Of a DNA stretch of 64,000 nucleotides, positions 27,014-58,904 are shown piece after piece. Both the position numbers and the translations under genes were made by a program. Origin of the DNA: Marsupella aquatica (lineage: Eukaryota; Plantae; Marchantiophyta); NCBI GenBank assembly GCA_973895155.1, contig OZ316893.1:18976857-19040856 (forward strand), read 5' to 3'. The notes below the pieces were generated by a model. The model worked only from the letters and a program-made list of their open reading frames with translations. It did not search any database and was not told the origin of the DNA. The first letter of the stretch is position 1. Each line of letters opens with the position of its first letter.

Positions 27014-27583
27014 CTACCACATCAAATACGGATACCAATCCTGTTGTCGATGCCACTCAGCCCTGAGGTACTCAGGCATGTACATTAAGTCATCAAGGTC
27101 TAAACCCTGCTCATGCCATGGTGGTCTTCGATCCGTGCCTACAAGCAGTGGCAACAGTGCCCTCCATGGTGCACATGTTGCTACCAAGTCCCTCCACTGG
27201 GTACTAATTAGTCTATATTTGCAGATATCTTGTGCGCCAGACACCACAAGAACCCTCGGCCAGACATGTGTAAGAACTATATCATCTGCCAAATTAGGCA
27301 ACAAGGAACCACCTACAGCATCGTGCTTGTCTAACTCATCTGCTGAAAAGTAAATGTCCTCTTCCGACTGTGCATCCTCATTCACCACAGCATTCACAAC
27401 ACATCCAAGGTCTGCAGGCATTATCTCGGATGGAGCTACACTCTGTCTGGTTACCAATCCACACAAGTAAGCCCAAGCAGTAGCCATGCACGATGCAACC
27501 CGTAGGAGGACCCTACATAGGGCCTGACGGTCTGGAAGAGGCAGCATACCCACCAAAGTCTTCAGCCAAACAGAGCCCAACAA
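27014..27583 (-). CDS. F-box-domain protein (CACTA cargo), copy 1
   Basis: LLPNLADDIVLTHVWPRV...ICKYRLISTQWRDLV...PW fits the F-box consensus. The start codon is uncertain. Confidence 0.65.
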   Translation of the reverse strand: MLGSVWLKTLVGMLPLPDRQALCRVLLRVASCMATAWAYLCGLVTRQSVAPSEIMPADLGCVVNAVVNEDAQSEEDIYFSADELDKHDAVGGSLLPNLADDIVLTHVWPRVLVVSGAQDICKYRLISTQWRDLVATCAPWRALLPLLVGTDRRPPWHEQGLDLDDLMYMPEYLRAEWHRQQDWYPYLMW

Positions 27584-27723
27584 GTAGATTCACAGTCACA
27601 CCCCACGCAGCAGGAAACAACAATCACTTCAACTGCGACCAACCATGACAAGATGAGTTAGTTCAAGGATCACATTTATTACAAAATTGTGTTTTATACA
27701 AAAATATGAGGGACTCCTACTCC

Positions 27724-28572: not shown

Positions 28573-29170
28573 GTACACACGGGCCACCTAATCACTGCAG
28601 ACCGGAAGATAATGCGTTCACCTGATAATCGGAGGGCCCTTAAAATGCTGCGTTTATAACTTGGTCCAGTCCAGTCGTCTGGTGAGTCTCTGCTCCGATT
28701 CCAAACGGGAGAAATATTGGGACAAACGTACTAGACACCTGCAAGCATGCACCTCATAGTTTGAATATGTGCCTTCACAATATTGAAGGTGACAAGTGCA
28801 ATTGTTTTGTGATGCCACATACAGATGTTGTAAATGGGCAGACATTCAATGAGAATACAAAATGTTGGTACACTTTAAGGGAATTCTCGCAAATTAAATA
28901 GCCTTGTAACTTATATGCTCATAATGAGAAGTCCTGATTTAATTTAAGCAGTGTCATGTAAGTCGTGATCAAAATGATTGCAAAGTTAAAAAAGTTCCTA
29001 GAAGGCTTAAGGGCAGTTTTTGAAGGCATGTACCCAGGAACAAGTAATGAACTTAGGGTACTTGTTGCCTAAGCATCCTCTCCTACAGAGGTCCTTCTTC
29101 TCAAAATTGGAATGTCTGCAATCTCCAAGGTATCCACATCAGGTGCACTATGCATGTATATTATTCAGGT

Positions 29171-29851
29171 TCAAAGCCAAGAAATGTGATCTCTCATGGG
29201 AGTGTGCAAAGTAGGATCTATGGCATGGTGATGACAATAGAAGATCCATCGATCAACACCATGTGCAGAGTGATCATAGATGTGTCTGTCACAAGCATAA
29301 CCTTCTGCTTGACGCTCCTTCAAACAATGAAAGTGCCACATGGTGGGACACCTAACACAGTGGACTATGTCCACCCAGAAATCTTCATCGTGCTGACCAC
29401 ATGCCTTGCACTTATGAAGTGGGCAAGCTGTGGCAAGATCGGGCAAACATGAAAAACAAAAGAACCTCACACAATATCTGTCAGGGCATTTCCTAACAAG
29501 TGGTGGAGCATCAACAGAGCCCTCATAAGACCCCAACTTCCCACAATGTGCACACTTAGCCTGCTTCTCCAAACAATCAGTGCACATCCAGCCTCCCTGG
29601 TGTGCTGACGGGAGGCCCACCCCTGGACAGTTGTTTTCTGCAGCAAGGTCAGACTCCGGGTTGAGGTGGAAATGCCTCATGCAAGGGCCCTCACATATGG
29701 CTAAGCCACCACCATCGTCACAAATGGCACAACAATGAGCTGCCTTCTGGAAAATCTGACTTGCGGAGAAGTTACTACCATCTGGCCCAACTACACCTGT
29801 GTTGCTCACCTCTGTCCCCCGCTTCTTGGCTCGGATTTTAGGGCGTGCCAT
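29171..29851 (-). CDS. EDM2-like composite PHD-finger protein (CACTA cargo), copy 1
   Basis: CAICDDGG..CEGPCMRHFH..C..CxxC..CxxCGKLGS..C....C..FF..C..CPLHKCxxC..CxRCP..WH..CL..IFYCxxHxID..LxTPxRDH is collinear with the PHD region of plant EDM2 as I recall it. Confidence 0.85.
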   Translation of the reverse strand: MARPKIRAKKRGTEVSNTGVVGPDGSNFSASQIFQKAAHCCAICDDGGGLAICEGPCMRHFHLNPESDLAAENNCPGVGLPSAHQGGWMCTDCLEKQAKCAHCGKLGSYEGSVDAPPLVRKCPDRYCVRFFCFSCLPDLATACPLHKCKACGQHDEDFWVDIVHCVRCPTMWHFHCLKERQAEGYACDRHIYDHSAHGVDRWIFYCHHHAIDPTLHTPMRDHISWL

Positions 29852-30519
29852 GCCTACGCATGAGATAGATAGTACAATTTAGCAGAGTGCACGGACAATA
29901 CAATTTAGTGCAGTGTACAAAAAGTACAGTGTAGCATATAGACTAGAGTGGCAATTGCTACTGCAATGAAATGTTCACACACATGTGCAGAGTAGACATA
30001 CTTTTTGGTTTGTTGAGCCCACACTAAAAACTGATCCCCTCGTACAATAGCTCCACCTACACCTCAATTTTGTGGCTATGATTCACCAAAGGAGATCTGC
30101 AACAAGATTTAATGCATTTGAATCACATATAACAGTCGTGACATGTAAAATAGGCATTTTTGAACAGGATTGGTATCAAGCAGTGTGATCAGGGTTGTAA
30201 TTTATACATCCTAAATAGGCTATGATAGTGAATGAGACAAATAAGTTAGGCAGAAATCACTTTTTCCAGGTTATCACATGGCCCATTAATTCCAGTCTTT
30301 GAAAGGAGACTTTTAAGTGAGCTTGCTAGCCTCTTAAATTAGGATATTGTACTTAGTGCAGCCATAATAGGATAAGTTATGTACTGTTGACCCTAAACCC
30401 TGGACCCAAAATTGGTCATAATTCAAAATCTTAAGTAAATATCCTCTCTGTTCAAGTCAAAGTGTTAAGTTATAGGTCAATGGTCTCTGGTTTGTGCATG
30501 CGGTGTGACAAGTGGTCCT

Positions 30520-30969
30520 CTAGAGCGTGTGATCCAAACATGTGTAGACACCAAAGTGACCGGTGGTGGGGTCTGGGAGGGCAGGACAAGTGACATCGCC
30601 AGGCACACTGCAGGATGGCGAGTGGTTCCAGATGATACATTGTGCTCTGTGAAAAAACCGACATCCAAGAGAACGGTCATCCAACTCTAGGCCAGAAGCC
30701 CTACAGGCAGGACAGTCATATTGGCAACTGTGCACACACCCTTGGGCCCTAATTTGTGGCGGGTCATGTATGAGAGACAGAAATACCAAGGATGTTGGGA
30801 AGGGTGGAGAAGCAGGTACAGGCCGGCTGTAGTTGTTCCTGGCAACAACTGGGTACTCAAAGTACCATGCAGACTGGGCTGGAAGGATCCCAAGTCTGAC
30901 ATACTCAAGGCGCAACATCTCTGCCTTGCGTGCAAGCCGCACATGTTCAGCGTTGCGGGTCCTCACCAT
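30520..30969 (-). CDS. 149-aa Cys/His-rich hypothetical protein (CACTA cargo), copy 1
   Basis: ATG-initiated and co-oriented with the other cargo. It contains CxHxCxxxCxxC and further C/H residues. No family recognised. Confidence 0.4.
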   Translation of the reverse strand: MVRTRNAEHVRLARKAEMLRLEYVRLGILPAQSAWYFEYPVVARNNYSRPVPASPPFPTSLVFLSLIHDPPQIRAQGCVHSCQYDCPACRASGLELDDRSLGCRFFHRAQCIIWNHSPSCSVPGDVTCPALPDPTTGHFGVYTCLDHTL

Positions 30970-33900
30970 AAGTGTTGCTTTTGTGGAGATGTCGTGTGTT
31001 CACGTCCTCTGATAAGCACCTTCGATCAGCAAGGTGAGCAGGAGCTGTACTTGCCTCACCAACAACAACCAACCTTAAATTATCAGTTCCCACTCACTGT
31101 GTCATTCCATTGGTTCCAGCTAGGGGTCACAGTGTAAACATAGCATGAAACACTCCTAATCAACTTGCTTACAAACTACAATATCCAGAAAGAGTGAAAG
31201 TCTCACCCTCCAGTGAGCAGCAGAGAGGTAGTTCACTAGATGTGTTGATGTGCAGTTAAACCTCCACTATTGCTTACTTCTGGTGTATGCTGCTCAGAAG
31301 AAGACATATTAGTAGCAGCAAATTGCAAATAATGGCCATAAGCAAACCGTGAGAGTTTGCAGAATGCTACGACAAATCCATCACAGCAGTGCTCCACAGG
31401 AATGAAACCAAGCAAAATTTGGTGACCTCGGCCAATGACAAGGCCAATGTAGTGAACAATCCTTGACCGATCAGGATATGGATTGGAATTACAATTAGTC
31501 AGCTCTTCTTCTTTGTTTTCTAACTCTGGGGGAAATGAGCATGACCAGGGAATTCTTTGAGAAATAGAAGTGCACAGGGAAAATGAAATTGGCTCATTCA
31601 GCTGCGCAAGACCGGCCATTGCAGCAAACTTGGACAGTTGTTCTGCAATACATAAAATACCCTGACTTACATGCAATCGATACAATCTGCTTCTGTTGGC
31701 TGTCCTATAGCTCACGGTAGTGCCGTTGGGATAGGGTAAGTGAATATTGCCATAGCTGAAGCACATTGAGCTTGCAGCAAGAAGTGAAGGAGCATGGCCA
31801 AAAGCAGAAAAGACAGACAGGTTTTACAAGAAGAAACTAACAACCGCCAATCTGCTCAAATCCGCTGCATAGATCAAACCCTCCAAACTACACAGCCCTC
31901 CTTTGAAAACAATCCAATGTGCTTTGGCTGGTGGATGACAAGGACTGGGAGAAGAGGAAACGTCTACACAATCAATCCCAATGACGGGACACAGAGACCA
32001 GGCACAGAGAGGATTTGTGCTTAGACAAAAACCACAAATTGTAGCATGGGCGCCATAGCATTGGGCGGCAATGGGAAGAATTACATCAAATGAGTGGACA
32101 GAGAATGAACAGTCCGGTTATAGGCAAACAGCGACTGATGCCCTGATGCAATGAAACACGCATTGACATAGCGGAGGGACATAAAAACTACATAAGCCAA
32201 CTTACTGACCTTTTAAGGCCCACAATTTCAAGGGGAGGGACAAAGACAGCAATAACAGACGCAGAGACAAAGCTGTACTCTGTCAATTGAGTAGGCAAGT
32301 GGGTGGGTGAAGATCAACAACCAATGTAGCAGCGCAACCAGAGTAGCAACAAAGAAGCAGGTTGCCCTCAGTCTCCTATTTTTCAAGCAGCTCGTGCTCG
32401 CGGTCAATCTCCTATTCTGCAAGCAGCTCACGCTCGTCCCTCTTGTTCTGCAAGCAGGTCATTCTTGTCGGCGATGGTGCAAGCTGTCCTCCTAAACTCT
32501 GACACTCAAAATGAAAAGACCAAGCACCTCCAATCTGTTTGATCCCTTCTGCAAGCAGCCGAGCGGCAGACGATAATGTAGGGATCAAGAACCAAGTGCC
32601 AGACGGACATTGCACAAAATGAGGACCGGGGGCAGAGACAAAATCTACCGAAATCTACCGAAATCTACTTCTTGGGGTCCAGCCCACGGATGGACATCAT
32701 GCAAGGTGGTCAAAAATGGTAAGTGCAATTGTTGGAGAGTTGTACTCGCGATTACTAACGGTGCATCCACAAAACGCGTCATCAAGTTGTCAGTGCGGCC
32801 ACAACAATTTTGACAATCTCAGGATCACAGGTCCACAAACAAGTTGCAAATGAAGACACACAACGTCCAGGAGGGAAAGTCCGCAACACTAACCCTTTGT
32901 AAAGCCCCCGAGCTTACCTTCTAGCTGCCGACGCAAAGAGAAAACCTACTCGGACACTGAAGCAACCCTAAACTCAAAGTCTCACCTTAGCGCAACAACT
33001 CCTGGATTGGATTCAGCTAGCTCAGGCTCAATGAAGCATGTCGCCTCGGGCTCTCCGGATCCTCCCAAGGCAGCAAACAAGTTAGGGTCCACGGTCCTTG
33101 TACCTTCACCGCACCGTTGTGTCCTTCCCAATGCCTCCTCTGTAGTTGCGTCTTGTCTGCAACTCTACAGCTCCTCGTGTTGCTCTGCCGCACTTAGTTA
33201 TATTCCAACGCCCGATCGTGACCAAAAAGAGTTTTCTCCTGCTGGACAGCACTAGGCATTTGTTCAATCTCTTGATCACGCGTAAGCAGCTACAGGTATG
33301 AATCACTCAGTTGGCAGCTCAATACGCTTACAGCAAGAGGGCGCAATAGGTAGAAGCTCGCGCTACCTAGACCAGCACAAGGACAAAGCATTAACATTGA
33401 AACTGTACCATGGAGCTAGAGAAAACCACAGAGTAATTGAAGCCTAACAATACCCTTCTTAGCTCCCGACTCCAAACTCTTGGCTCCCAGTTTGCAAGAA
33501 CAAGCACTATGAAAATATGGATTCCCACATTGACTGTGTCCGCAGAACAGATGCAACCCGCATGCAACTTCACCAGCTCAACGGCAGCTTGACAACTGAA
33601 GGACCTCCCAATGAGCCTCACGGCCTCCCGATGCTCGTTATGGGTGCAGCAAAAGGGTCTATACCACAACTGTGACCGAGATTGTCACCCAAAACCTTGA
33701 AGAAACCCCAACCTCCGACTCCTCAAACTCCGACAAGCTCCTCACGAATGTTGCAGCAGCCACAACCTTCTTCGCCCTACCAGCCAAAAACTAAATGTCC
33801 CTAAAGGAGATCGAGCAGGAATGCAGGTCTATGAGTAGACTGCAAGCGCAAGGTTAGATCACTGCAACTGCCTGAACACTGCTCCTCGAGAGCATAAACA

Positions 33901-35367
33901 AGCACATAACGCGCGGGAAGTTCACTCCGCAATGGTCGCAAAAAGTGGGCAACACTGAAAGGAAAACCCTACGTAAAACCCCGAACACTCCACCCCTCAC
34001 GTTCTAAGTTCAATGACAATGGCGAAAACTCCAAAGAGACTCCCAAAGTGAAGTTTAGTGCCTGAAACCGAATTAGGGGAAGCCACTCAGCCTTACCGTT
34101 TGAGTGAGCCGTTGAGTGTCACCCAAAGTGGGACAAAGCTACAAAGTGTTACTGCATGGCCAACTTAGGCAATGAATGGTCATATTTGCACATACATGGT
34201 CGGTAGTGATATTTTATTGCACGCCGTAATCAGGATTAAGGTTGCCCAACATTATATCCGGTCCTAAAATGCAATATTCCCGGTGCAAGAATGTGACCTA
34301 GCTCTAATGTATGAAAAAGGACCGGTACAAATCTACCTTTGTGCATCTTGACCTTTTATAGATGGATTTAGTAATGGCCAAGAATATCTTGACCGTCCCT
34401 CCATGGTCCAACCTCCATGAACCCCACTTCATTAAACCCAAAACCTTTTTGGTCACAAATAAGGAAATTTAATGAGTTATGCCCCTTGCTATCACCCTCT
34501 TTATAGATTTATTTTTTTGTTTGAAATTTTACATTTATTCCGCGTGAACCCCACGGATGGGGGAACCAGTAGGCCAAATGGCATCATAAAACCTCAACAC
34601 CCAAAGGAGGCAATAACAAAGAGTTACTCAACCAGGGTCATCAGATCAGGCAAAGATTGCGAAGCCGTTCTTCTAGTGGTCCATGCAACAAGTAACAACT
34701 AGGGAATAAGCACTAGAAGGCGCAGTAGGTCAGCATAGTGTAAGTGTAAAGTGTCAAAGCATTGTCTAGTACTAAATTAATCCACCTGATTAGTAAGAAG
34801 GGGGTGTATACTGTAATGGGAAAAAGAAAAAAAAACCAAGGCATGAGCAAGGGCCACCAAGAGTGGTGCAGCTATAAGCTATAGGGATTGAACACAATGC
34901 GGGGGGGCAGTGGCACTATGTATGAGGAAATCACGGGAGTATCGGTGTCAAATGAGTCGACAAAACTCCCAGATAGCCACACAGTATAAATCAATCTCAC
35001 AGAAGGCTGCCATCAATGGAGGAAACAATTTGACACGACCCACATCTGAGAGTGTGAATTCGCTCGATCTCTAGCAGTTCTTTGGCACTCGATAGACGTC
35101 GGTGCTTTCGGCTCAAAGATGAAGGAGAATTACCCCTCCTCAACATAGAGTGAACATTACCCATGATGTGCTAGACTATTCACCCTTCACAAAGTAGCAA
35201 GGTTACTTCTCATAGTCTTTTAGTGAACCATAAAACTCTCATAGTCTTTTCTAGTCTTCAACAAAACCGGTGCAATGGGTGCGAGTCGTTTTAAGTATGG
35301 AAAAAGGACTTAGTGGGCATAGTCCTATAAGGTATGGTCTAAATTGCCCCGGTTTCTACTAGTGTAT

Positions 35368-40523: not shown

Positions 40524-43500
40524 CACTAGTAGAAACCGGGGTAATTTAGACCATACCTTATAGGACTAAGCCCACTAAGTCCTTCTTCCATACTTTAAAT
40601 GACTTGCACCCATTGCCAAGGTTTTGTTAAAGACTATAAAAGACTTTGAGTGTTTTCCGGTTTAGTTAAAGACTATGAAAAGTAACCTTGCTACTTTGTG
40701 AAGGGTGAACACTCTAGGACATCATGGGTTTTGTTCTTGGAATCACTCTAAAGGTCCACACAAAGACTAGTATAAGACAAAGTCTTACAAGGGTTCATGA
40801 TAAGAGTATACTTAAGAAGGACCGCGCGACATCCTACTTTTGGGCCTAAGTGCTTAAGGACATGCCTTGTATATATCACCAACCTTAACTAACATTGCAC
40901 CATAAATATCCATGTAACGGGTACTTTTCATAACTTAGGGTACAACTGTACTGGAGGGCTTAGGGTGGTTTCTAACCAGAACCGGAACTAATGCATCACT
41001 ATAACCCTAGCTAGGTACAACTCCCACACCATGATATATTCCGCATTGCCAACTAGTGTTGTTTTGACAGGGTCATGGGCACTAATTGACACAATGAACA
41101 GTCCACAACTTGATTGATTTGAGTGTAAATGATGGTGCCTTTTGATCCAAGATTAATTCCACAAGGGGGGGGGGGGAGGGTTAGGGGGGCCCACAACTAA
41201 TTAAGTGGCCATGACTTTGTCACCAAAGGGATTTATTTAAAGTTATCCTTAACCCTCTTTAGTTTTGTGTGTTGCCTAACACTCTGGCGCAAACGTACTT
41301 ATTATGCTCAACGGGTCACCTCAACGGAAACGAGCTTACATGACTGCTTGCACTAAGTATTGGGTTAGGGTGAGTGTGCTTTGGTCATCAGGTGATTATT
41401 GGGTTTTTGTGAAGGGAACTATCGAGTACTTGCGCCCATGTGTTCGGGCCCCATTGTGCGACAGAACATTGTGCTTTGCTTCTATGAGTGGAGCATACGA
41501 GTAGGGTTTAGGGTTAACATTTTGCGAGGGAAGCTGGGAGGCGATTGTAGTCAATTGTTGCCATCCACTCCTGCGAGCGCTTTTGACAGTTCTACCTGCA
41601 TGCCCCTTACAATTGTTTGGACAAAGGAGTTCAGTAAGTGGTTTGCGCTGGTTTGGGACCTTGACAGTCGTGAGGTGGTAAGGACATTGAGGCATCCCTG
41701 AGAAGCGCTTGATGGTAAGGACATTGAGGTGTTGGAGACATTGAGGCGTTGCGGACATTGCCTTAGAGGCTCTTGAGGCCAGTGACAGCTTTTGGCGCGA
41801 AGGCAAGCGGAGATTTGTCTCCTGCCTGAGAGCTGACAGCTTCGGATTGAGACAACGTGGGCGCACCAAGATTCAGAGAAGACTGACTGGCTGGGACCGA
41901 CCGGTCTTGGGAAGTTGCAGCCGTGGAGGGACCGGGAGCGCTAAGGTACATTGCAGCTACGAGCAGCAATGCACCTGCCATAGTGACATTGAACTGCCCT
42001 GAATCACCCTGGTTAGTCCAAACTTCCATTTGCAAGTTAGTTTTGGTAGTGGCTTTGGTTTTCTAGGCGGAATGAGCTCCGATGCCATGCATTAAGAATG
42101 TGGGAAATGCTATTTTGTAGCTTGCTACCTCATAGTGCTAATTTCAACTTCAGGTTTGCGTGGTTTTGGGCGATAAGCTTGTGGCTCATTCGGACTGAGT
42201 GACCTTCCTGCGGGCCCTGCCCTAAGTGTTCACACTTCTCGCCGTCCCAAACTGCGAAAGGCTTCTCCCCATTCTGTATCCCTGCTTCAGTAATTGTATT
42301 GAGGTCTTTCAATCAGTCTCATAGGGGAGGTCATTGTCTTCTCTGTAAGTTGTTGCTCCTATCGCACTACCAAGCTTGTTGAAGGGAGCTACTATCGCGA
42401 GCTGCTACCATTGCGAGCTACTACCACCGCAAGTTGTTGAGGAGAGGGCCAATTGTTTGCGAAAGGATTTCCAGATTGTGTCGGAGGTCCAGATTTCTTG
42501 CTTGTGGGTCCCCATGTTTGCAGTTTTTTCCTGGCTTCTTGCGCAGTGCTCCGACGTAGTACCCATGATGCTAGTCTGAACGGATTCATGAGTTGTGACT
42601 GATTTGCTGTTCAAATGATGTCTTCAACTAGAGCTACAATTAGTGTCTGTGGAGCTACCAACCAGGTCCAGGTGTGATTGAGGTCAGTTCAACTGTTGGG
42701 TTGCCCGAATGTTCCGTTGCCATCATTTGTAACCACGAGCAATGGACTTTAGAGGCGGGATTTTCTAGGGATTTCTGCTCAACCCTTTGCTGGCTTTCTA
42801 CTTTGAGGTCTATTTTGGGGTTCGGGCAAAGGGCGGAGGGCAAAGATCAAGCATTGCAGTTTTGCTAACGCTGCATGGTGGAAATTGGACCAGCCAACTC
42901 CTTGTCTACGGTGTTGTGGAGCTGGGCGAGCTGCGACAAGGGACCAAGCCAGGTGACCTGTGAATCAAAGCCCATTGACCGCTGCTGAAGGTTTGATGTT
43001 CTATATTTGAAGCTCTCGTTTGCTTTCTATTTGTCAGTCTTTCACAGCTGCGCATTAGTGTTGGCCCTATCCTCCGTCCCTCTGCTGGCCTGCTACTGAC
43101 ATTTGGTTAATCATAGTTGTTCACTGCTGTGCATTAGTGTTGGCCCTATCCTTCGTCCCTCTGCTAGCCTGCTACATTTGGTTAATCAAAATGCAATGTC
43201 TGTCTGAGTGAGCTGATCATCTCCAATGTAGTATGGGCTTGGGATTTACATATATGTTTCCTGCTTCCAGCAGATAGGCAATTGCTTCCAAGCTCTTTGG
43301 TGCAGACGTCTCTATGGAATGCAATGCCCTATATGCCAGAGCTTTCATATATTGGCATGTTCACATTTGCTCTTGGAATATATGATCCCGAAAGCTTCAT
43401 GAGCAGTTTATGTTCAGAATTCTGTTTATGTTATTGTTTCCGTCAATTGCAGCTTGGATTTTTGAATATATGTCCTGTCATTGATGATAGAGGGTGGTTG

Positions 43501-44729
43501 AGATTGGTTTTCTTTCTTCTTGGTAGTGGGTCAGTGTGTTGGCATTTTCCTCATGTCACTCATTCTCATCGGACGAGCTGCGGATTGGTACTGAATAGTC
43601 ATTTAGCCTATTGCTGCCTCCCACCGCCATTGCCGATTGCCGCTATCATCGTGTATTGCTTGCTTGCTTGCCACTGCCTTTGTTGGTTGCCACCCTCTTC
43701 ACACTCTCTCGCATCTATCTTCCGATATGAATGCGCAGCCAAGCCCAGCAAAAGCTCTGTCCCTACAATCCCTCCCAAATCAACTTCCTTGTTTCTTGCT
43801 GCTCATGATCACCGCATTGTTCTTCCCTATTTTTGTTTACTTATTGGTCTCTCCACACTTGTTGCTTCACATGACTATTTTGCTCCTCCCTGGATCCGAA
43901 CATGCCTTGTGCCCAATGCTCCCACGGTGGAGTGGGGTGGTGAATAGACGACCTCAACACCATTGCAATCACATTTGGATGGGTTAGTTTTTTGCAGCTT
44001 AAACCTGTCGGGATTTTGCGCTTGTGGCGACGCTATCCTTTCTGCCACTTCATGAGTTTGTTTATGCTGCAGTGGGCGGTCTTGCGCAACTCAATGAGCC
44101 AATTTCATTTTCCCTGTGCACTTCTATTTCTCAAAGAATTCCCTGGTCATGCTCATTTGCCCCAGAGTTAGAAAACAAAGAAGAAGAAGAGCTGACTAAT
44201 TGTAATTCCAATCCATATCCTAATCGGTCAAGGATTGTGAACTACATTGGCCTTGTCATTGGCCGAGGTCACCAAATTTTGCTTGGTTTCATTCCTGTGG
44301 AGCACTGTTGTGATGGATGAATAGTTGTCGTAGCATTCTGCAAACTCTCACGGTTTGCTTATGGCCATTATTTGCAATTTGCTGCTACTAATATGTCTCC
44401 GACTGAGCAGCATACACCGGAAGTAAGCAATAGTGGAGGTTTAACTACACATCAACACATCCAGTGAACTACCTCTCTGCTGCTCACTGGAGGGTGAGAC
44501 TTTCACTCTTTCTGGATATTGTAGTTTGTAAGCAAGTTGATTAGGAGTGTTTCATGCTATGTTTACATTGTGACCCCTAGCTGGAACCAATGGAATGACA
44601 CAGTGAGTGGGAACTGATAATTTAAGGTTGGTTGCTGTTGGTGAGGCAAGTACAGCTCCTGCTCACCTTGCTGATCGAAGGTGCTTATCAGAGGACGTGA
44701 ACACACGACACTCCACAAAAGCAACACTT

Positions 44730-45179
44730 ATGGTGAGGACCCGCAATGCTGAACATGTGCGGCTTGCACGCAAGGCAGAGATGTTGCACCTTGAGTATGT
44801 CAGACTTGGGATCCTTCCAGCCCAGTCTGCATGGTACTTTGAGTACCCAGTTGTTGCCAGGAATAACTACAGTCGCCCTATACCTGCTTCTCCACCCTTC
44901 CCAACATCCTTGGTATTTTTGTCTTTCGTACATGACCCGCCACAAATTAGGGCCCAAGGGTGTGTGCACAATTGCCAGTATGACTGTCCTGCCTGTAGGG
45001 CTTCTGGCCTAGAGTTGGATGACCGTTCTCTTGGATGTCGGTTTTTTCATAGAGCATAGTGTATCATCTGGAACCACTCGCCATCCTGTAGTGTGCCTGG
45101 CGATGTCACTTGTCCTGCCCTCCCAGACCCCACCACCGGTCACTTTGGTGTCTACACATGTTTGGATCACACGTTGTAG
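44730..45179 (+). pseudogene. Cys/His-rich hypothetical ORF, copy 2 (premature stop at 45057-45059)
   Basis: Homologous to 30520-30969, with a Gln codon replaced by TAG. Confidence 0.4.
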
Positions 45180-45848
45180 AAGACCACTTGTCACACCGCA
45201 TGCACAGACCAGAGACCATTGACCTATAACTTAACACTTTGACTTGAACAGAGAGGATATTTACTTAAGATTTTGAATTATGAGCAATTTTGGGTCCAGG
45301 GTTTACGGTCAACAGTACATAACTTATCCTATTATGGCTGCACTAAGTACAATATCCTAATTTAAGAGGCTAGCAAGCTCACTTAAAAGTCTCCTTTCAA
45401 AGACTGGAATTAATGGGCCATGTGATAACCTGGAAAAAGTGATTTATGCCTAACTTATTTGTCTTATTCACTATCATAGCCTATTTAGGATGTATAAATT
45501 ACAACCCTGATCACACTGCTTGATACCAATCCTGTTCAAAAAATGCCTGTTTTACATGTCACGACTGTTATATGTGATTCAAATGCATTAAATCTTGTTG
45601 CAGATCTCCTTTGGTGAATCATAGCCACAAAATTGAGGTGTAGGTGGAGCTATTGTACGAGGGGATCAGTTTTTAGTGTGGGCTCAACAAACCAAAAAGT
45701 ATATCTACTCTGCACATGTGTGTGAACATTTCATTGCAGTAGCAATTGCCACTCTAGTCTATATGCTACACTGTACTTTTTGTACACTACACTAAATTGT
45801 ATTGTCTGTGCACTCTGCTAAATTGTACTGTCTATCTCAGGCGTAGGC

Positions 45849-46529
45849 ATGGCACGCCCTAAAATCCGAGCCAAGAAGCGGGAGACAGAGGTGAGCAACA
45901 CAGGTGTAGTTGGGCCAGATGGTATTAACTTCTCTGCAAGTCAGATTTTCCAGAAGGCAGCTCATTGTTGTGCCATTTGTGACGATGGTGGTGGCTTAGC
46001 CATATGTGAGGGCCCTTGCATGAGGCATTTCCACCTCAACCCGGAGTCTGACCTTGCTGCAGAAAACAACTGTCCAGGGGTGGGCCTCCCGTCAGCACAC
46101 CAGGGAGGCTGGATGTGCACTGATTGTTTGGAGAAGCAGGCTAAGTGTGCACAGTGTGGGAAGTTGGGGTCTTATGAGGGCTCTGTTGATGCTCCACCAC
46201 TTGTTAGGAAATGCCCTGACAGATATTGTGTGAGGTTCTTTTGTTTTTCATGTTTGCCCGATCTTGCCACAGCTTGCCCACTTCATAAGTGCAAGGCATG
46301 TGGTCAGCACGATGAAGATTTCTGGGTGGACATAGTCCACTGTGTTAGGTGTCCCACCATGTGGCACTTTCATTGTTTGAAGGAGCGTCAAGCAGAAGGC
46401 TATGCTTGTGACAGACACATCTATGATCACTCTGCACATGGTGTTGATCGATGGATCTTCTATTGTCATCGCCATGCCATAGATCCTACTTTGCACACTC
46501 CCATGAGAGATCACATTTCTTGGCTTTGA
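45849..46529 (+). CDS. EDM2-like composite PHD-finger protein (CACTA cargo), copy 2
   Basis: 226 aa, with 4 amino-acid differences from copy 1 and all Cys retained. The N-terminus MARPKIRAKKR is NLS-like. Confidence 0.85.
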   Translation: MARPKIRAKKRETEVSNTGVVGPDGINFSASQIFQKAAHCCAICDDGGGLAICEGPCMRHFHLNPESDLAAENNCPGVGLPSAHQGGWMCTDCLEKQAKCAQCGKLGSYEGSVDAPPLVRKCPDRYCVRFFCFSCLPDLATACPLHKCKACGQHDEDFWVDIVHCVRCPTMWHFHCLKERQAEGYACDRHIYDHSAHGVDRWIFYCHRHAIDPTLHTPMRDHISWL

Positions 46530-47127
46530 ACCTGAATAATGTACATGCATAGTGCACCTGATGTGGATACCTTGGAGATTGCAGACATTCCAATTTTGAG
46601 AAGAAGGACCTCTGTAGGAGAGGATGCTTAGGCAACAAGTACCCTAAGTTCATTACTTGTTCCTGGGTACATGCCTTCAAAAACTCCCCTTAAGCCTTCT
46701 AGGAACTTTTTTAACTCTGCAATCATTTTGATCACGACTTACATGACACTGCTTAAATTAAATCAGGACTTCTCATTATGAGCATATAAGTTACAAGGCT
46801 ATTTAATTTGCGAGAATTCCCTTAAAGTGTACCAACATTTTGTATTGTCATTGAATGTCTGCCCATTTACAACATCTGTATGTGGCATCACAAAACAATT
46901 GCACTTGTCACCTTCAATATTGTGAAGGCACATATTCAAACTATGAGGTGCATGCTTGCAGGTGTCTAGTACGTTTGTCCCAATATTTCTCCCGTTTGGA
47001 ATCGGAGCAGAGACTCACCAGACGACTGGACTGGACCAAGTTATAAATGCAGCATTTTAAGGGCCCTTCGATTATCAGGTGAACGCATTATCTTCCGGTC
47101 TGCAGTGATTAGGTGGCCCGTGTGTAC

Positions 47128-47976
47128 ATGGCCTCTAGGAAACGTACAAAGGTTGACCACCCGCCTCTGTTGGCTGGAATCAAAGCCATTTTGATTCCTG
47201 ACCACTATGGGTTCACCCAAGTGAGTTGGCCAATCGTACAAAAACGATTCTCAGAGTTCCATGGGACTGAAGTCAAGGACATCACTCCACAGACTACACA
47301 TGTTGTTGCGGGGACATGGCTGGATGTGATGAACAAGTGGTCATGGTCCTTCATTGATTCTGCCATTACCAACCAAGGTCTAAAAGTAGTTGAAGTCTCT
47401 TGGCTGACCGATTCTGTTAAACATAGGTGTGTACAGAGTACTGAGCAATATGAGTTGTGGGAGAGTGAGGAGGCCACTGCAGAGGCTTTGGCTGAAAAGG
47501 AAGCCTATGAAGCAGCGGCAGAGAAACCCAACTTTGCTTCTGTCCAATATGGACCTGTTGTCAACATAGGACACCATCCTATGCGTGCAGATGCTATATT
47601 GAATGAGCATGGCAAGGAGAGAAATACCATTATGAAGGGGTTCAGTGTGGTATTTGCAGAAGAAGGAATTGGGGAGACTAAGTGCAGATTGTACAAGTCT
47701 ATAGTTGTTGAGCTAGGTGGGACAGTGGAGGAGAGTCTAACAGAAACCTCCACTCATGTTGTAGGTCTGTCATACATGAAAATATGCAGAAAATTCTTTA
47801 AGACAACAGTGCATGATTTTGTCATGAACAACAATCTTTGGGTGCTTTCCCCTGATTGGCTTCTAGAATCAGCAGCTAGAGGGAAGCGACAGAATGCTTG
47901 GGACTTTGATATTTTTGAGGCCTGGCCCTCCAAGATTCAGCGGAGATGTATGCTTAGCAAAGGTGGGAGAGAGTGA
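47128..47976 (+). CDS. Tandem BRCT-domain protein (CACTA cargo), copy 2
   Basis: Intact, with 2 amino-acid differences from copy 1. First ATG at 47128. Confidence 0.85.
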   Translation: MASRKRTKVDHPPLLAGIKAILIPDHYGFTQVSWPIVQKRFSEFHGTEVKDITPQTTHVVAGTWLDVMNKWSWSFIDSAITNQGLKVVEVSWLTDSVKHRCVQSTEQYELWESEEATAEALAEKEAYEAAAEKPNFASVQYGPVVNIGHHPMRADAILNEHGKERNTIMKGFSVVFAEEGIGETKCRLYKSIVVELGGTVEESLTETSTHVVGLSYMKICRKFFKTTVHDFVMNNNLWVLSPDWLLESAARGKRQNAWDFDIFEAWPSKIQRRCMLSKGGRE

Positions 47977-48116
47977 GGAGTAGGAGTCCCTCATATTTTT
48001 ATATAAATCACAATTTTGTAATAAATGTGATCCTTGAACTAACTCATCTTGTCATGGTTGGTCGTAGTTGAAGTGATTGTTGTTTCCTGCTGCGTGGGGT
48101 GTGACTGTGAATCTAC

Positions 48117-48686
48117 TTGCTGGGCTCTGTTTGGCTGAAGACTTTGGTGGGTATGCTGCCTCTTCCAGACCGTCAGGCCCTATGTAGGGTCCTCCTATGG
48201 GTTGCATCGTGCATGGCTACTGCTTGGGCTTACTTGTGTGGATTGGTAACCAGACAGAGTGTAGCTCCATCCGAGATAATGCCTGCAGACCTTGGATGTG
48301 TTGTGAATGCTGTGGTGAATGAGGATGCACAGTCGGAAGAGGACATTTACTTTTCAGCAGATGAGTTAGACAAGCACGATGCTGTAGGTGGTTCCTTGTT
48401 GCCTGATTTGGCAAATGATATAGTTCTTACACATGTCTGGCCGAGGGTTCTTGTGGTGTCTGGCGCACAAGATATCTGCAAATATAGACTAATTAGTACC
48501 CAGTGGAGGGACTTGGTAGCAACATGTGCACCATGGAGGGCACTACTGCCACTGCTTGTAGGCACGGATCGAAGACCACCATGGCATGAGCAGGGTTTAG
48601 ACCTTGATGACTTAATGTACATGCCTGAGTACCTCAGGGCTGAGTGGCATCGACAACAGGATTGGTATCCGTATTTGATGTGGTAG
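48117..48686 (+). CDS. F-box-domain protein (CACTA cargo), copy 2
   Basis: LLPDLANDIVLTHVWPRV...KYRLISTQWRDLV, with 3 amino-acid differences from copy 1. First ATG at 48153. Confidence 0.65.
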   Translation: MLGSVWLKTLVGMLPLPDRQALCRVLLWVASCMATAWAYLCGLVTRQSVAPSEIMPADLGCVVNAVVNEDAQSEEDIYFSADELDKHDAVGGSLLPDLANDIVLTHVWPRVLVVSGAQDICKYRLISTQWRDLVATCAPWRALLPLLVGTDRRPPWHEQGLDLDDLMYMPEYLRAEWHRQQDWYPYLMW

Positions 48687-49012
48687 TAAGATGAGGACAT
48701 CTCACACCGGTCTCGCACCTGGCACCTGTGTCTATGACTATACATGATTGGACTCTGATATGGTCATGGATGTACGTGCAAAGGCAGTACATGTGAGGAC
48801 AGCGGAGGAGTTGACACCCTCAAACATTTAGGAATTTTGTCTCATTCACTTGAGAATAGGTACATGACTCAGGCACCTATATTTTTTGTTTTTTTGTTTT
48901 TTTGGAACGTTATGTATTTTGGCAAGTACAGTCGGGGGTGAAATCCTTAACAAGAAGTGTATTTTTCACTTGCATAATAAAATGACAGGGTGCTGAGTGC
49001 GTGTGTATAGTG

Positions 49013-52000
49013 ATGGCTCCAAGGTTGCCTCTTCACAACCCATTTAGGATTAGGCATCATGATTCTAAATTATGGATGCGTGAACAAGCCCGGGCCGCCC
49101 AAGGTAGGAGTAGGAGGATGAGATGCCCATGCACACAGTGCCAAGGATTCAAGTCGTTGAGTTTGAACACTGTGCACCTTCACCTGCTGCGGCATGAAAG
49201 GCACCCTCGGTGGAGGGTTTGGAATGTACCAGCAGAAGAAGACTCCTCTGATGAAGAGTGGAGAGCTGACTTTGTGGATTCTAATACAGCTAGGCGTAGA
49301 GACTACGTAGAGCAGGACATAGACTGTGCAGAGGATGGTCCTGGGGTCCAACATGAGAACGTGGATGACCAAGATGGAGATGTAGAGGCAGTCACTGAGG
49401 ACGGTGGGATGGATGTCCCAAGAATGGTTCAAGAGATTTTTGAAGACCTTGATGCTTTTTACGACACAGTGGAATCAGAAAAGGACAATGAACCGCAGCC
49501 ACACATTGGCGACGGCCAAGCTGAACCTGACTTTGACATTGGGGAAGGTGCAGCAGAGAGGGAGTGGGTGTTTGGGGGCCCAAAACACATCAAAGAAGCT
49601 TGCATTCCTATCTACGAGGGGTCGAACTGCTCCAAGCTGGGTTTTGTCGTGTTGTTGTTGAACATCTGTGGCAATCACAATGTTCCCAATATATTTGTGA
49701 CAGAGTTGTTGACCTTCCTGCGCCGAAATGTGTTACCAGATGGTAATTCAATTCCAAAAAATATGTACGAGGCTAGGAAATTGATGTCTAACCTTGGGCT
49801 GAACTATGTGTCTATTGACGCATGCCCTGATGGGTGTGTTCTCTTTCGCAAAGAGCATGCAGATAAATTGACATGCCCTCATTGTGGTAAGCACAGGTAC
49901 AAGAATGTAGGGAAATGTACACACCCTGCCAAGGTTCTTCGTCATTTTCCTCTCATTCCTAGACTACAACGTCTGTTTAGATGCCCTGCCATTTCCAAGC
50001 TGATGACATGGACTCCTGATAACAAGAGCAGTGATGGCCTGCAGCGTCACATTGGAGATTCCAACCATTGGAAATTTGTTGATGAGAGGTGGCCACAGTT
50101 TGCTGCAGAGAAGCGGAACTTTCGATTTGGTCTATCACTGGATGGAGTAAACCCATTTGGAGACAAAAACAACCGTTATTCATGTTGGCCGGTTACGCTG
50201 CTAAATTACAACCTTCCCCCATGGATGACTACAAAGAGGTTTTTTGTCATGATGGTGCTGTTAATCCCTGGACCAGCTTGTGTGACCGAGCAATTCATAG
50301 ATATCATGTTGGCTCCAGCAGTGGAAGAGTGGAAGACTTTGTGGATAGAAGGGGTGTTAACCCATGATGTTCTGAAGGGGCTTCTTCGACCCAGCCCCTT
50401 TAGACTGCATGCAATTTGTTTGCTGGATATAGCAGATTACCCAGGCCATGGCATCATATCTGGACGAGTGACAAAGGGCTATGTGGGGTGCACACCATGT
50501 GGGAAAAATGTGACAAGTGAGTGGTCGCATGCCCTGCACAGTATGAAATTTCAGGGGCATAGAAGGTATCTGCTTGTTGATCATCCTTACAGGCACACAC
50601 GGTCTCAAATTGCACACTTCAACAACAAAACAGAGCTTCGTGGCCCACCACAGAGGATCACCAGAGAGCAAGTCCTGAGGTGGGCAGCCAGGAAGGCTGA
50701 TTGGGACAAGAGAAGTGCCACTGATCGAGAACCTGAGGATCCAGTGGTGAAACACGGTGTGAAAAGACAGACCTTGATGGACTTGGAGTTGGAGTACTGG
50801 AGGGTAATGTACTTAGCCTCCAGCCCCTGTATGATTGCAATTTTAGATTGGAGCAATGGTGGATTGATGTTGGTTACAATCCTCCTATGTGGTTAATTAG
50901 TGTTTCTGTTGTTGAATTCTTTGCTTTGTGGAGTGCAGGAATTCGAGCCCAACAAACACAATGTGGACGTCATGCACATTGAGAAAAATATTTGTGAGAG
51001 CTTGCTGAAGTTCTTGTCGGGTGAGAAAGATACAGGAGCAGTTCGAGCTGATATGCAACAGAAGGGGATTCGCCCTCACCTTTGGTTGAAGCCCCATGCA
51101 AGCAATCCCAATGTACTTCTCAAGTTCCAAGCTCCCTATGTGTGCACACAGGATGAATGGAAGACATTCTTGTATAGATTGAGCTGTCTGAAAGTGCCCT
51201 CTAGCTATGCTGGTGCCTTCAAGAAGCATATTACAAAGAATAAACTTGGCAGTATGAAAACACATGACTACCATGTGTTGATGCAGCACATTCTGCCCCT
51301 ATGCCTCAGAGGTCTCATGCAGAAACCAGTCCGTAATGTCATTCTTCGACTGTGCAATGTATTTCGCCGTATATGTGTGAAAGTGTGGGATCCCCAAGGA
51401 TTGGAGCAGTTGAAGCAGGATGCTGCTTATGTCCTTTGTGACTTGGAGATATACTCCCCCCTGCTTTCTTTGATGTTATGACTCATCTCCTAATCCATGT
51501 GGTAGAAGAGCTAGGGCAGTATGGGCCAGTCAGTACCAGATGGATGTACCCTATGGAGCGATACATGAAGTTGTTGAAAGGTCATGTGAGAACATACTAC
51601 AGGCCAAAGGCTTCCATGGCATTGGGGTACATTAAGGATGAGACGTTGGGATTCCTAACAGAGTACATGGCTGGGTCTGGTGAAGCTATGACAAGAGTTT
51701 GGAAATCTGGTGAAGATGATGGAGTGAGTGGCGAGGTTGTTGAAGGTGTGGGACGTGCTGTTCAACTGCCTGTTGCGATTCGAGACAAGGCTCATTCATA
51801 TGTGCTGGCAAACACAGAGCCTATGCAACCATGGTGGAGGTGAGTGATTGAATTGACTTGCCTTTGTTGTGATGCTTCTTGTCTGTTCCAAGGGTGATCT
51901 TAGGTTGTCATGTGTTGTTTAGACCTAACTATGCCTGTACCTCATATTGCAGGGAATATGATATGCAAAAAGCTGCACACTCTGGGTAGCAGGATCCCTT

Positions 52001-52712
52001 CCCACAGTTCGAGAAGTGGATTCGGGTGACAATTCGAGAGCATAGTAGACATCACCCAGATATGGAGAAGGATTTGTATCTTCTATCTGTGCCACCATGA
52101 TTGTCTATTCTGACCTACAAACGGATGAGAGCTTATGGAAATCATTATCGAGTGAGGGATGAGCAGGGTGACCATTGTGTATCATATGATTGTGGTTTGA
52201 TTTCTGTGTTTGAGCAGAGAACCTCTGAAGAACAGAGGGGGTGGATGAAGATGGGTTACGTGGGGGAGTTGACCGACATTTGGGTGTTGAATTATGGTAA
52301 CACAAGTGTCCCAGTGATATTGATGAAGGGATCATGGGTGAAATCAGAGTGGCAGAGACCAAGGGCCACCATGAAGCGTGATCATGATGGGTTCTTGTTG
52401 GCCAATTTTAGGTCCAGAGTACCAGAATGGTCTGAGCCTTTTGTTTTCCCTAGCCAAGTTGAACAGGCTTTCTTTGCAGATGTGGAGGAGTCACATGGCT
52501 GGAGGGTGGTATGCCATAGCCAAGCACGGAACAGGCGGATGGATGGAAGTAAAGTAGAGTTCAGTTTGGATGACCATGCTGCATTCGAGCATCCTAGTCA
52601 TGAGACTGTACTTCCAACTCGGGCAGGGACTGACTACATCCCCTTAACATTGAGAGAGACATATGATGAACCTGGGCAAATGGAATATGATGAGGTTGAT
52701 GATTTGCAATAG
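49013..52712 (+). pseudogene. tnpD: CACTA TnpD DDE transposase, copy 2 (introns about 50804-50938 and 51840-51952)
   Basis: Same domains as copy 1. GT-AG introns rejoin the frame. There is a 1-bp deletion near 51455 (FPPAFF motif) and stops at 51987 and 52098. Confidence 0.93.
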
Positions 52713-52889
52713 GCAACAGCTGGCGATTGGCAAGTATGAGGTTGAGGATGACTACCTGCACAGAGTCACAGAACGGGAATTGCTGCCTGGAATGATGTTT
52801 AGGATAGTTGGATATGCATGAAATTGATTGATACTTTGAATTTAGTGTGCTGATTCTCCCTGTTTGGTTGTGGGTGCTGTGCAGAAGCT

Positions 52890-55800
52890 ATGGGGGAAGA
52901 GGGTGATGACATGGAGACAGACATGGGGCTTGGAGAGTGGGGTGAAGAGGAAAGATTGGATATGGATGGAGACCCAGATGCAGGGGGCTCACAGAAAAAT
53001 GCACCTGTGCAAGATGCACAGGGCCCTCATCAAGTCCCAGGTAGGTGGGCAGCTAGAGAGAAATCACATAATCCATACCCTAGAAGGAGCCAGAGTTATT
53101 GGCAAGGGACGCCTGATAATTATGATGATGACTATGATGGAGCAGAAGATGGATGGGATGAATATGAACACCCAGAGCGTGGTAGAGACGGGTACAGAGG
53201 GCAATGGAAAGGTGAGGAGGATGATTGGACAAGTAAGTGCCTTGTGCTAGTGATTTTGTGATGGTAGTAGAGATTTAGCTCAATATGCACTTATCTGATG
53301 TGTAGCTAGGGCAAAGAGTTTATCTTACAGGTCCATGAGTGTGGCATGTACCTGTTGGTATGCAGACTCTGATTGGGACAATCACGAAAACAACAAAGGC
53401 CATCCACGTTCAGATAGGAGGCAATCATTCACAGGCGGGAGAAACGCCCCTAATTCATCAAGACAAAGCAATAGGACAGGTGGTCCAGAACCATCTATGC
53501 GCTAAGGGAGAGGTAACTTGGTCATTGCTTGCTCTGAAGTCCACTGTATATTTGGCAGCGGGATTTATGATTCATACTTACCTAATGTAAGTGACTGTAA
53601 ATGGATCCTGTAAATGTGCAGGGACTCCAGGGAGGTTTGGACAATGCAATCCAGGCCGTGGGGGGAGATCAGGCCGTGGAGGGACCCCAGGCCGTGGGGG
53701 GACACCAGGCCATGGAGGGACACCTAGTAGCGCTTCAGGGAGTACCAAGGCAGGAGACAGTAACAAATTTGGTAAAGTAGAAGTGAATTCCGAAGGTTGG
53801 ATAACTCCCACATGTGATGGTAAGAACCGTTGGCATTCTGACCTAAGAGGAGAAGTATTGCGTTGGTTAGATTTGAGCATTATAGAGTTTAGGAGTCAGA
53901 ACAAAGCTGATTGGGCTGCTATCTGCAAGGACATTCTTGAACGGTGGGAGTATGTTGGTAATGATGGTAAGGGCCCAGTTGAAGATTGCATATCAGATTA
54001 TGCAATGAGGATTTTGAAACAAGAGAGGCATAGGTTGAAAAGGATGTGGATAGACAATGGTTCTAACAGGAGAATGCCACCACCCCCATCATTGGAACTG
54101 GATCAATGGACACGGTTAATCAAAGGGTTCATGTCGGAGGCTGGACAGAGCAAGAGTGAACTGATGTCAAATGCTCGAGGCAAAGTGAAACACCTTTCAC
54201 AGGCTGGGAGAGGAAGTTATGCTCCAGTGAAAGAACAATTGGTAAGGCAGTGACATGCCTGATAGTAAGCCTCAAACTTATCATCTTGCTACCATTATTA
54301 CATTTTCATTGACAATCAACACTTGGTTTCATTCATATGTATGTTGATGTGGACTACAGAAGAAATTGACAGGTGAAGAACCATCAGCACAAGAAGTGAG
54401 AGAGGAGTTCATGAAACAAAGGAGTGAGGTGACAAGTGTAACTTCCAAACAGGTGATTATGTTGTAATTCTGTATGTTCTGTGACTATTTGGCCTTGAGC
54501 ATCAGAAAGAAATGTAGTAGGAAGTAAGCAACCAGTTCTTGGGGACAGTTATCTGAGATATGTAAGTTGTGTTATGACAGGGAACTGTTACAACTCTCAT
54601 AGAGATGTGTGAACGGTTGAAGTCATTAGAGTGTGGACTCCCTTGAGTGGAAAGTAAATTGGCTGATCGTTTGGATATTGTGGAGGCATCTGTAGCGAAC
54701 CTTCTTGCATGAGTGGAATCTAATTTCAAGCTTGTGATTGAAAAATTGGGTGGTTCCCAACCAAACAACGAGGGCAACATTGTACAAAGTGTGCCCTTGT
54801 TAACAAAAAAGGGAATTGGCAAATCTGACACAGGTATGGAAATGACACCGGCCCATTGTTCATTGTGTCCTATGTTCAAATGTTAGAAGTAAGTTTTCAT
54901 GAATTGAGTGAATGGTTTGAATGCAGGAAGAGTGGAGGCAGAGAAGGACCCTGTAATCAGTAAGCAGAAGGGCAAGAAGGTTGCTGAGACAGGTAACCTG
55001 CTATGATCCAGTACATTACATTTGAAAAGTGCATGGAGTTTTGTGAAGCTTAAGCCGGTTGGAGGTAATCTTTTCTGTAAGAACTGGTTGGATGAACTGG
55101 GATCTGAAGTGACATCATGATTGATGTATCAGGTGATTCAAAGAGCAATAATGAAGAAGATGTGCCCAGTGCCTCAGTGACCATAGCCAAGGAGGTATCA
55201 GGTAAGCTGATGCTTTAAATTCCTCTATATGAATGTTGAGAAACAATTCAGTGGTTAATAGATTCAACTTGAATATTGTGGTGTGTTTATTGATCAACAG
55301 AAGCAGACATGGAGCATATGGCAATGGCAAAGAAGGGGAAGAAGGCTGTTCATAATGGTAAGGAGATAGTGACAACTTTGTGGTTGGTGACATGTACATT
55401 TAGCACATGTGATGAGTGATTGACTTATGTTGGACATGACACTGAATTGTAGTTGATGCAGAGTTGACAGACTCTCAACCAAGTGGGAGCAGGGTGAAGC
55501 GACGTCGAAACTTGGGAGCAACATTGGATGCAAGTAAGATTGTAGATGCTTCAATTGAAGCAAGTACAATGTTGGCAGATACTGAGATGATGTCACAGAG
55601 AAATCCTGCTACACAATCAGAAGTGTCAAATATGGATGCAGATTCTTTGAAGAAGAGTGTAGCCAATTCTCGATCACCAGCACAAAACACTCGTGCCAAA
55701 GTCATGACTCGCAACCAAGGTATGAATAATGTCATGTATAAGCCACCCAGGAAAGCCAAGAAAAACAGCCAGGGTAAGGTGGAGGTGATAGCCACAGCAG

Positions 55801-56057
55801 AGCCAGTCCATAATCTTCTATCATGGGAGGATGACTCGCAGGTATGTGTGGGTACAGGCATTTTGCGACCGGATCATGCAAAATTCCATGGCAAAGTGGT
55901 CCCGGATGACCATGTAGTAGTGTTGTTGACTACAGTGATTGTATCTGATTGTAATTTGCCATTTCCGAATAGAGACGATGATCCACCTCAGGAAATAATT
56001 GCAGATGCAGTAGGATCTCTTGTGCTTTGGCCATCAGAGTGTGTTAGTCTGCAGTGA
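52890..56057 (+). pseudogene. tnpA: CACTA TnpA-like multi-exon gene, copy 2
   Basis: Acidic N-terminal exon, RGG-repeat plus Transposase_24-like exon (about 53620-54241) and Tnp1-like last exon. Stops near 53503, 54644 and 54710. Confidence 0.75.
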
Positions 56058-56888
56058 CTGAATGCAAGTGTAGATAGAATCATGTGAATTGTGTCACATT
56101 TTGACATTGCCTTGGAAAGATCCAAGAAATATCTGTACCAATTTTTCCATTTGGTAAAGAGGATGAAGGAGCCGTTGTGTGTGACATTGATATTTCTGAA
56201 TTCTGTATGTATGAAACAAGTGATTGATGTCAAACTATGGCTCTATGGTGATTGTCTATGATATTTGAATATGTTTTGTATCATTTCAGTATTAGTGTGT
56301 ATGGTATAGAGGAATACTTTGTGACCTTCTTTGTAGTCTATGAAGTTTGAATCTGTGAATTCATATTAGTGTACATGGTATAGAAGATGGCTTTCTGAAA
56401 CTATGTATTCTAATGTTAACATGATGAATGGTGAACTTATAGAGTGAGTTCATTCCAAGTACACAATAACACATGAATGCAATATGTTATTTGTGCACAA
56501 GAGTGGGTTCATTCCAAGTAGTATAGTGGGGTCTTCATCACTCATATCCAGTTGACATGAAAGACTTATACATACCCCACAAAGTATATTTAAAGACTAC
56601 CCTCCATAATCTTTTTAGTCGTTCCCAACGACTTACCATCTCAGCCCATAAAAGACTGAAAACGACTCACCAAAGCTACCCACACAAAGACTAAAATAGA
56701 CTAAAAATCCAGTCTATTAAACGACTTATAAACCAGTTCTATAAAGGACTCAGTTGATTATAGTAACAAAACATACGACTCGCAGTCCTATAAAGGACTG
56801 GAGTCCTTCCCAGTCGTTTCCAAGTCCTACACGGTACTGAATAGTCATTTAATGGGGTCTAAATACCCCCCGGTTTCTACTAGTGGGA

Positions 56889-58902: not shown

Positions 58903-58904
58903 TT

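Follow-up and report, generated by a model that had tools for sequence, protein, structure and literature searches.

The window analysed here is the whole 64,000-nucleotide stretch of Marsupella aquatica contig OZ316893.1, and it contains two complete CACTA elements, each of which encodes a small protein with two BRCT repeats. Copy 1 (18813..35364, minus strand) is 16,552 bp long and has the TSD TAT, and copy 2 (40524..56885, plus strand) is 16,362 bp long with TIRs of ~30 bp and the TSD GGA. The four CACTA/CACTG element ends carry TIRs of ~30 bp with 90% identity, and self-comparison shows a 12.8 kb inverted duplication of 98.7% identity common to the two copies. A single giant element spanning 18813-56885, with the 12.8-kb sequences as its inverted repeats, was ruled out by the four ends and the two different TSDs. 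A single older Copia element, with LTRs (16751-17087 and 58903-59239) that are 90.9% alike and a primer-site-like sequence after the left one, has received both copies, each at its own site. The two insertions are independent, 5 kb apart and oppositely oriented, a pattern suggestive of short-range hopping or of a preferred target, and inversion of the DNA between them could occur through the 12.8-kb inverted pair. Elsewhere in the window, a 1.5-kb inverted pair of 87.9% identity (1908-3414 and 14654-16133) with gag-like frames consists of decayed retroelement pieces; the frames show a zinc knuckle and, at 3241-3723, weak similarity to SCAN (E 0.003). Short tandem repeats occur at 38142-38310, 43041-43188, 4007-4354 and 62503-62656, with units of about 26, 79, 99-121 and 77 bp, respectively, and searches of the window for tRNA and Rfam matches returned none.

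Each element is made up, in order, of a 213-bp left end, a variable arm, ~1.8 kb of shared sequence, a PHD ORF, the BRCT ORF, an F-box-like ORF, TnpD and a TnpA-like region. Its set of domains identifies the DNA as that of a land plant. The 213-bp left end upstream of the variable arms is 88.7% alike between the copies. The variable left arm of copy 2 (40737..44064, plus strand, 3.3 kb) is unrelated to the sequence at the same place in copy 1 (31627..35151, minus strand, 3.5 kb), and neither arm contains a Pfam domain. The arm looks like a cassette swapped between copies and, lying upstream of all element genes, may supply a promoter. An enrichment of the telo-box promoter motif in the left arms was considered and found to be unsupported (0.3-0.57 per kb versus 0.14-0.37 outside the elements). 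Within the shared sequence upstream of the PHD ORF, the segment 44065-45230 holds a minus-strand Cys-rich frame (44688-45008) that is frameshifted between the copies; this segment has the deepest contig coverage within the element in two sequencing runs and is perhaps a repeat of its own.

The first of the three accessory ORFs (45849..46529, plus strand, 226 aa) encodes NSD-like PHD fingers recognised by Pfam, with its counterpart in copy 1 at 29171-29851 on the minus strand, and is a candidate histone-mark reader aboard the CACTA element. The last of the three (48153..48686, plus strand, 177 aa; copy 1: 27014-27547, minus strand) gives a weak F-box match (E 0.085), has an acidic stretch and sits between the BRCT ORF and TnpD. 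TnpD itself (49013..52712, plus strand) is divided into several exons and carries the Pfam domains Transpos_assoc, Transposase_21 (E 5.7e-59), DUF4218 and DUF4216. It is followed by the TnpA-like region (52890..56057, plus strand), also of several exons with putative limits, which lies in the usual position and has a Transposase_24 match below the cut-off (E 0.014). TnpD is broken in both copies, by nonsense codons in copy 1 and by a one-base frameshift in copy 2. In contrast, the PHD, BRCT and F-box-like ORFs are all open in both.

The double-BRCT ORF of copy 2 (47128..47976, plus strand) is a complete, intronless, single open frame of 282 aa with a start context, a stop codon and an AATAAA at 48020, although splicing to further exons is conceivable. 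Its counterpart in copy 1 (27724..28572, minus strand) is likewise open over 282 codons. Both lie at the positions given in the original prediction, which had also described the protein as transposon-borne; this is borne out by the TIRs and TSDs that bound the element around each ORF. The two ORFs have only four base differences, two of which change a residue (positions 25 and 229), and at both of these sites copy 1 has the base that predominates in contigs of other runs. The open BRCT frames in the two copies prove little by themselves, because the copies are young. The GC content of the BRCT ORF is close to that of the transposase (0.46 versus 0.48; CpG observed/expected 0.23 versus 0.37), and this transposase-like base composition together with the absence of an intron fits a long-resident element gene. 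Part of the stretch is contained in 11 of 13 listed public runs, and four of these contain at least half of its words. When the element was compared with contigs of four runs, three showed coverage along its full length and a large number of variant contigs; in three of the four, the BRCT ORF was covered in each of its 30 bins. Coverage of the BRCT bins is like that of the transposase bins, and coverage of the left arm present here is several-fold less, with the proviso that contig depth does not equal copy number. This distribution suggests that the BRCT gene belongs to the body of the element family and does not represent a single capture.

The original prediction of two BRCT repeats is confirmed by Pfam, with PF00533 matching the whole protein in two stretches (E 8.6e-15), and by AlphaFold2, which folds both as BRCT domains. 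A basic patch at residues 4-8 (47137..47151, plus strand) is, from its sequence, likely to be a nuclear localisation signal, and basic N-termini are also present in the relatives P0002, P0004, P0005 and P0018. Repeat 1 occupies about residues 12-112 (47161..47463, plus strand) and on its own matches PF00533 with E 5.5e-4 and 20.6 bits, just below the cut-off of 21.3. Repeat 2, at about residues 165-266 (47620..47925, plus strand), matches with E 5.6e-10 and is the repeat to which the resemblance to Pol-lambda discussed below refers. The conserved Gly-Gly and Trp of BRCT domains are present, along with the beta-alpha fold. An ungapped alignment of the two repeats spans 71 residues with 24% identity (pairwise E 2e-8), a resemblance that would fit an old internal duplication. 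An acidic Ala-rich helix between the repeats had been anticipated; it is predicted at residues 114-132 (47467..47523, plus strand), a position kept across the family, and is followed by a poorly conserved, unstructured linker at residues 134-163 (47527..47616, plus strand; pLDDT <50) that the original prediction had not described. The C-terminal tail (47930-47976) is without the acidic tail seen in P0002, P0006, P0007, P0029 and P0030 and may be a derived end.

The structural model was built from a 15-sequence alignment, used instead of an alignment of three sequences only that gave a pLDDT of 33.7, and it has a mean pLDDT of 80.9, with 162 of the 282 residues at 90 or above and most values in both BRCT domains exceeding 90. 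A pTM of 0.50 accompanies a model in which the two domains have no fixed packing, leaving their orientation open. When the model was compared with 48,161 PDB representatives, BRCT-type domains filled the top rows throughout (best Z 15.9, rmsd 1.9 over 96 residues). No other Pfam domain was found in the protein. The 8-kDa lyase and nucleotidyltransferase domains are absent from the ORF and from 108 upstream open frames of at least 45 aa in the left parts of both elements, in agreement with the expectation that no catalytic domain is present. At E 0.001 these frames contain no polymerase-family match, the PHD frame being the sole match of any kind; a DNA_pol_B_N match at 44607-45056 (E 0.14) is noise that disappears at this threshold.

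Proteins of this kind form what is apparently an undescribed family. A word-index search found one relative, with 61% identity. A HMMER scan of 1.84 billion representative proteins returned 22 matches, of which 18 are short (62-313 aa), BRCT-only and unnamed, and the remaining four fall outside the family with E values of 1e-4 to 8e-4. Two-repeat proteins of 225-321 aa are found in nine other clusters, most of them with the same layout of repeat 1, helix, variable linker and repeat 2, often followed by an acidic tail. The relatives have no informative names and lie on short contigs, and scans of metagenome loci for them gave 0 of 222 pattern matches and, in a second scan, 0 of 589. The ESM Atlas returned generic BRCT clusters only, all below 0.9, and a viral fold library returned only phage ligase-type BRCTs, with one match at E 0.001 or better. 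A tree of the individual domains groups the first repeats together with support and does not resolve the branching of the second repeats or of the base.

These relatives bear on whether the ORF is simply a passenger, a piece of a host BRCT gene picked up by a gene-capturing CACTA element and copied without benefit to it. The element visibly swaps left-arm segments of 3.3-3.5 kb, and a test of codon changes, which used 37 of 106 differences (40 displayed minus three at an indel), gave no significant synonymous excess: 10 of 33 changed codons are synonymous compared with 27% expected (p 0.40, not different from neutral), and in repeat 2 alone 9 of 20 (p 0.065). Both observations are compatible with a passenger. 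However, the frame is complete and intronless with its start context, stop and AATAAA, and the architecture is unchanged among six aligned two-repeat relatives as identity falls from 61% to 17%. Conservation is also concentrated in the domains, which are 67-68% identical to those of P0002 compared with about 30% in the linker and tail (136 of 202 versus 14 of 47 positions, Fisher p 4e-6). In a diverged subfamily in other runs all of the indels listed keep the frame (net +3 twice), and among the relatives and cluster members there is no named host protein with the double-BRCT architecture. Passive capture is considered improbable.

The original prediction had also proposed that repeat 2 resembles the BRCT domain of DNA polymerase lambda (Pol-lambda), as found at the N-terminus of the plant enzyme. 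For Pol-lambda in general, this is partly supported by the comparisons made here. Three of the four outside HMMER matches are Pol-lambda N-termini aligned on repeat 2 (matching PDB 2jw5 with E 2e-17, 2.5e-12 and 2e-8), although they are marginal, were selected as the best of a huge library and are N-terminal fragments of non-plant type; the fourth is a TopBP1-like multi-BRCT protein. Comparison of the family profile with the Pol-lambda fragments by hhalign gave a probability of 98.5 (E 2.7e-15), and with the TopBP1-like protein 85.9, an unequal contest since the latter is a single sequence. With a Pol-lambda profile repeat 2 reaches 43.2 bits, compared with 32.5 with a profile of TopBP1 repeats, and the best PDB match of one family member, P0016, is Pol-lambda (E 0.025). 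In helix alpha1 of repeat 2 the residues K185-x-x-L188-Y189 (47680..47694, plus strand), together with a preceding G-I-G and the Gly-Gly, are exactly in register with the R57-x-x-L60-F61 of human Pol-lambda, and Pol-lambda, unlike the TopBP1-like repeats, also has the longer loop between beta1 and alpha1 that ends in G-I-G. Plant Pol-lambda appeared neither in the HMMER scan nor in word-index searches for longer relatives (no match among 7996 candidates) and with the 15-sequence profile (two matches among 4463, neither of them Pol-lambda), the word-index results being weak evidence.

The rankings against known structures favour other BRCT classes. In PDB searches with the family profile, Rtt107 (42.6 bits, over several stretches), BRCA1 (38) and REV1 (37.4) all score above human Pol-lambda (31.7), as does Rad4/TopBP1, and repeat 2 alone gives 19 matches at E 10, none of them Pol-lambda. 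In the fold search Pol-lambda ranks 23rd with Z 11.0 and Pol-mu has 8.9, compared with 15.9 for PARP4 and 14.3 for XRCC1. Across the family the Pol-lambda profile beats the TopBP1-repeat profile in only 13 of 26 repeats. The complete Ku-docking motif is found in four of the 26, and repeat 1 of the protein described here does not have it; the place of R57 is taken by a basic residue in 10 of the 26 and in five of the 10 second repeats, and R..L also appears in one of four TopBP1-like repeats. A resemblance of repeat 2 to Pol-lambda has real support, which stands on the N-terminal fragments and one short motif; the PDB profile and fold rankings do not single out Pol-lambda, and descent of the protein from Pol-lambda is favoured only by a little.

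An alternative is a functional accessory factor that does not mimic a family X polymerase. Its BRCT repeats would bind DNA, poly-ADP-ribose, proteins of the element, or a factor of chromatin or transcription, and together with the neighbouring PHD and F-box-like proteins it might target chromatin or counteract silencing. The PDB rankings in favour of other BRCT classes, the patchiness of the Ku motif and the presence, in both copies, of open histone-reader-like and F-box-like frames beside the BRCT ORF are all consistent with such a factor. On the other hand, three of the four nearest outside sequences are Pol-lambda, the G-I-G loop is shared with it, and the canonical phosphate pocket is missing. 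At the places which we take to be those that bind phosphate in BRCA1 (S/T-G and Lys), repeat 1 has Tyr-Gly and Ser and repeat 2 has Glu-Gly; with these pocket residues missing and with a long, partly disordered spacer, the protein probably does not read phosphopeptides in the manner of BRCA1. Taken as a whole, an accessory factor of this other kind, including its co-operation with the neighbouring proteins, is seen as only a little less probable than the decoy proposed below.

Helix alpha1 of Pol-lambda docks between Ku70 and Ku80 via R57 and L60, and recruitment of the isolated BRCT domain to breaks depends mostly on Ku (PMC12056208). According to the same paper, Pol-lambda without catalytic activity depresses gap filling in human cells to less than is seen in the knockout, an effect that is lost when R57 is altered, and this dominant-negative action through R57 provides a precedent for the steering of repair suggested in the original prediction. 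In Arabidopsis, Pol-lambda binds Lig4 and XRCC4 by its BRCT domain and takes part in the repair of transposon excision sites, as stated in PMC4444747 (citing Roy 2013 and Huefner 2011). From its sequence features, the double-BRCT protein is likely to bind the host break-repair machinery, which would let the element influence the mending of its own cuts.

We tentatively propose that the double-BRCT protein acts as a catalytically empty decoy for the family X polymerase site on Ku70/80, a possibility that we regard as distinct although it falls short of even. The protein would have originated from the N-terminus of Pol-lambda, with its basic patch and BRCT domain, followed by internal duplication. 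The basic patch would direct nuclear import, and repeat 2 would then bind Ku-coated ends via K185, L188 and Y189. Host Pol-lambda would be displaced with no polymerase supplied in its place, so that end joining with gap filling would be slower at the site that the element has left, and repair of the gap with the sister chromatid as template, which restores the excised copy, would become more prominent. Repeat 1 has neither a Ku-docking motif nor the phosphate pocket of S/T-G and Lys; its conserved tryptophan-rich face and the helix that follows may hold a second partner, perhaps a protein or an end of the element, and this would keep the effect local. However, crippled end joining could also harm repair at the new insertion site, which counts against a decoy.

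The same motif could instead serve to recruit Ku, with the protein acting as an adaptor that brings end joining to the transposition complex and seals donor and target breaks fast, such that the host survives. Some transposases and integrases bind Ku. An adaptor would draw on the same evidence from K185-x-x-L188-Y189 as a decoy does, and two independent domains on a flexible linker, as modelled here, would suit a bridge. However, PMC12056208 found inhibition in human cells when the polymerase site was occupied and no polymerase supplied, and a recruiting role is seen as the least probable of the readings discussed here. Returning to the decoy, its fullest form would be that a plant CACTA lineage made the docking domain of a host repair polymerase into a dedicated, duplicated, enzyme-free protein that counters NHEJ by occupying the polymerase site on Ku and shifts the repair of excision breaks toward gap repair that restores the copy, with a histone reader and an F-box-like protein encoded alongside, and in that form it is an unlikely, though not a fanciful, proposition.

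Copy gain of cut-and-paste elements depends on the host pathway that mends the donor site, and an element gene aimed at repair would allow that question to be tested directly with a single protein of 282 residues and the alteration of two of them. Should the proposal be correct, plant cells would contain a small, naturally occurring protein that modulates end joining, and the element would be a eukaryotic DNA transposon that encodes its own factor against NHEJ; should the Ku link fail, the stand-alone double-BRCT family would still be apparently undescribed. A stand-alone double-BRCT gene in a CACTA element was not found in the literature searched, where coverage of subscription papers and Repbase is thin and a prior note may exist; the terms 'BRCT' and 'PHD' are absent from the text and one supplement of PMC12730594.

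Compared with known systems, the elements described here are like En/Spm in their CACTA-starting TIRs, their 3-bp TSDs and the order of TnpD and then a TnpA-like gene, and unlike it in the three extra ORFs (PHD, double BRCT and F-box-like) upstream of TnpD and in the swappable left arm. The protein resembles the N-terminus of Pol-lambda (2jw5, 9g9l) in having a basic patch and a BRCT domain, with the G-I-G loop and the basic-x-x-Leu-aromatic motif in repeat 2. It differs in that it has two repeats but neither the 8-kDa lyase domain nor a polymerase domain, has Lys in place of Arg57 and has lost the motif from repeat 1, and its identity to the human Pol-lambda BRCT domain is about 18%. With the phosphopeptide-binding tandem BRCTs of BRCA1, MDC1, TopBP1 and Rtt107, which give the top raw PDB scores, it shares two BRCT folds per chain. 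However, its spacer of ~50 residues is partly disordered, the S/T-G and Lys pocket is not present, and two-domain superpositions of the model, which lacks fixed packing (pTM 0.50), have an rmsd of 12-18 A. It also recalls the tandem BRCT of DNA ligase IV in having two BRCTs and a long spacer; the 255-residue NHEJ-complex chain 9cq3_f is the top Foldseek row and ligase IV the top match in one profile search (E 0.011), but there is no significant match in the spacer, and the scores are within the range of unrelated BRCT pairs. To our knowledge, transposon accessory genes mostly counter silencing, and known accessory proteins, such as VANC of VANDAL, act on silencing and not on repair. As in Pack-CACTA and other elements with accessory proteins, non-transposase cargo is carried and the left arm differs between copies. 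However, Pack-CACTA cargo is usually fragmentary and decaying, whereas the double-BRCT ORF is whole and its architecture is conserved.
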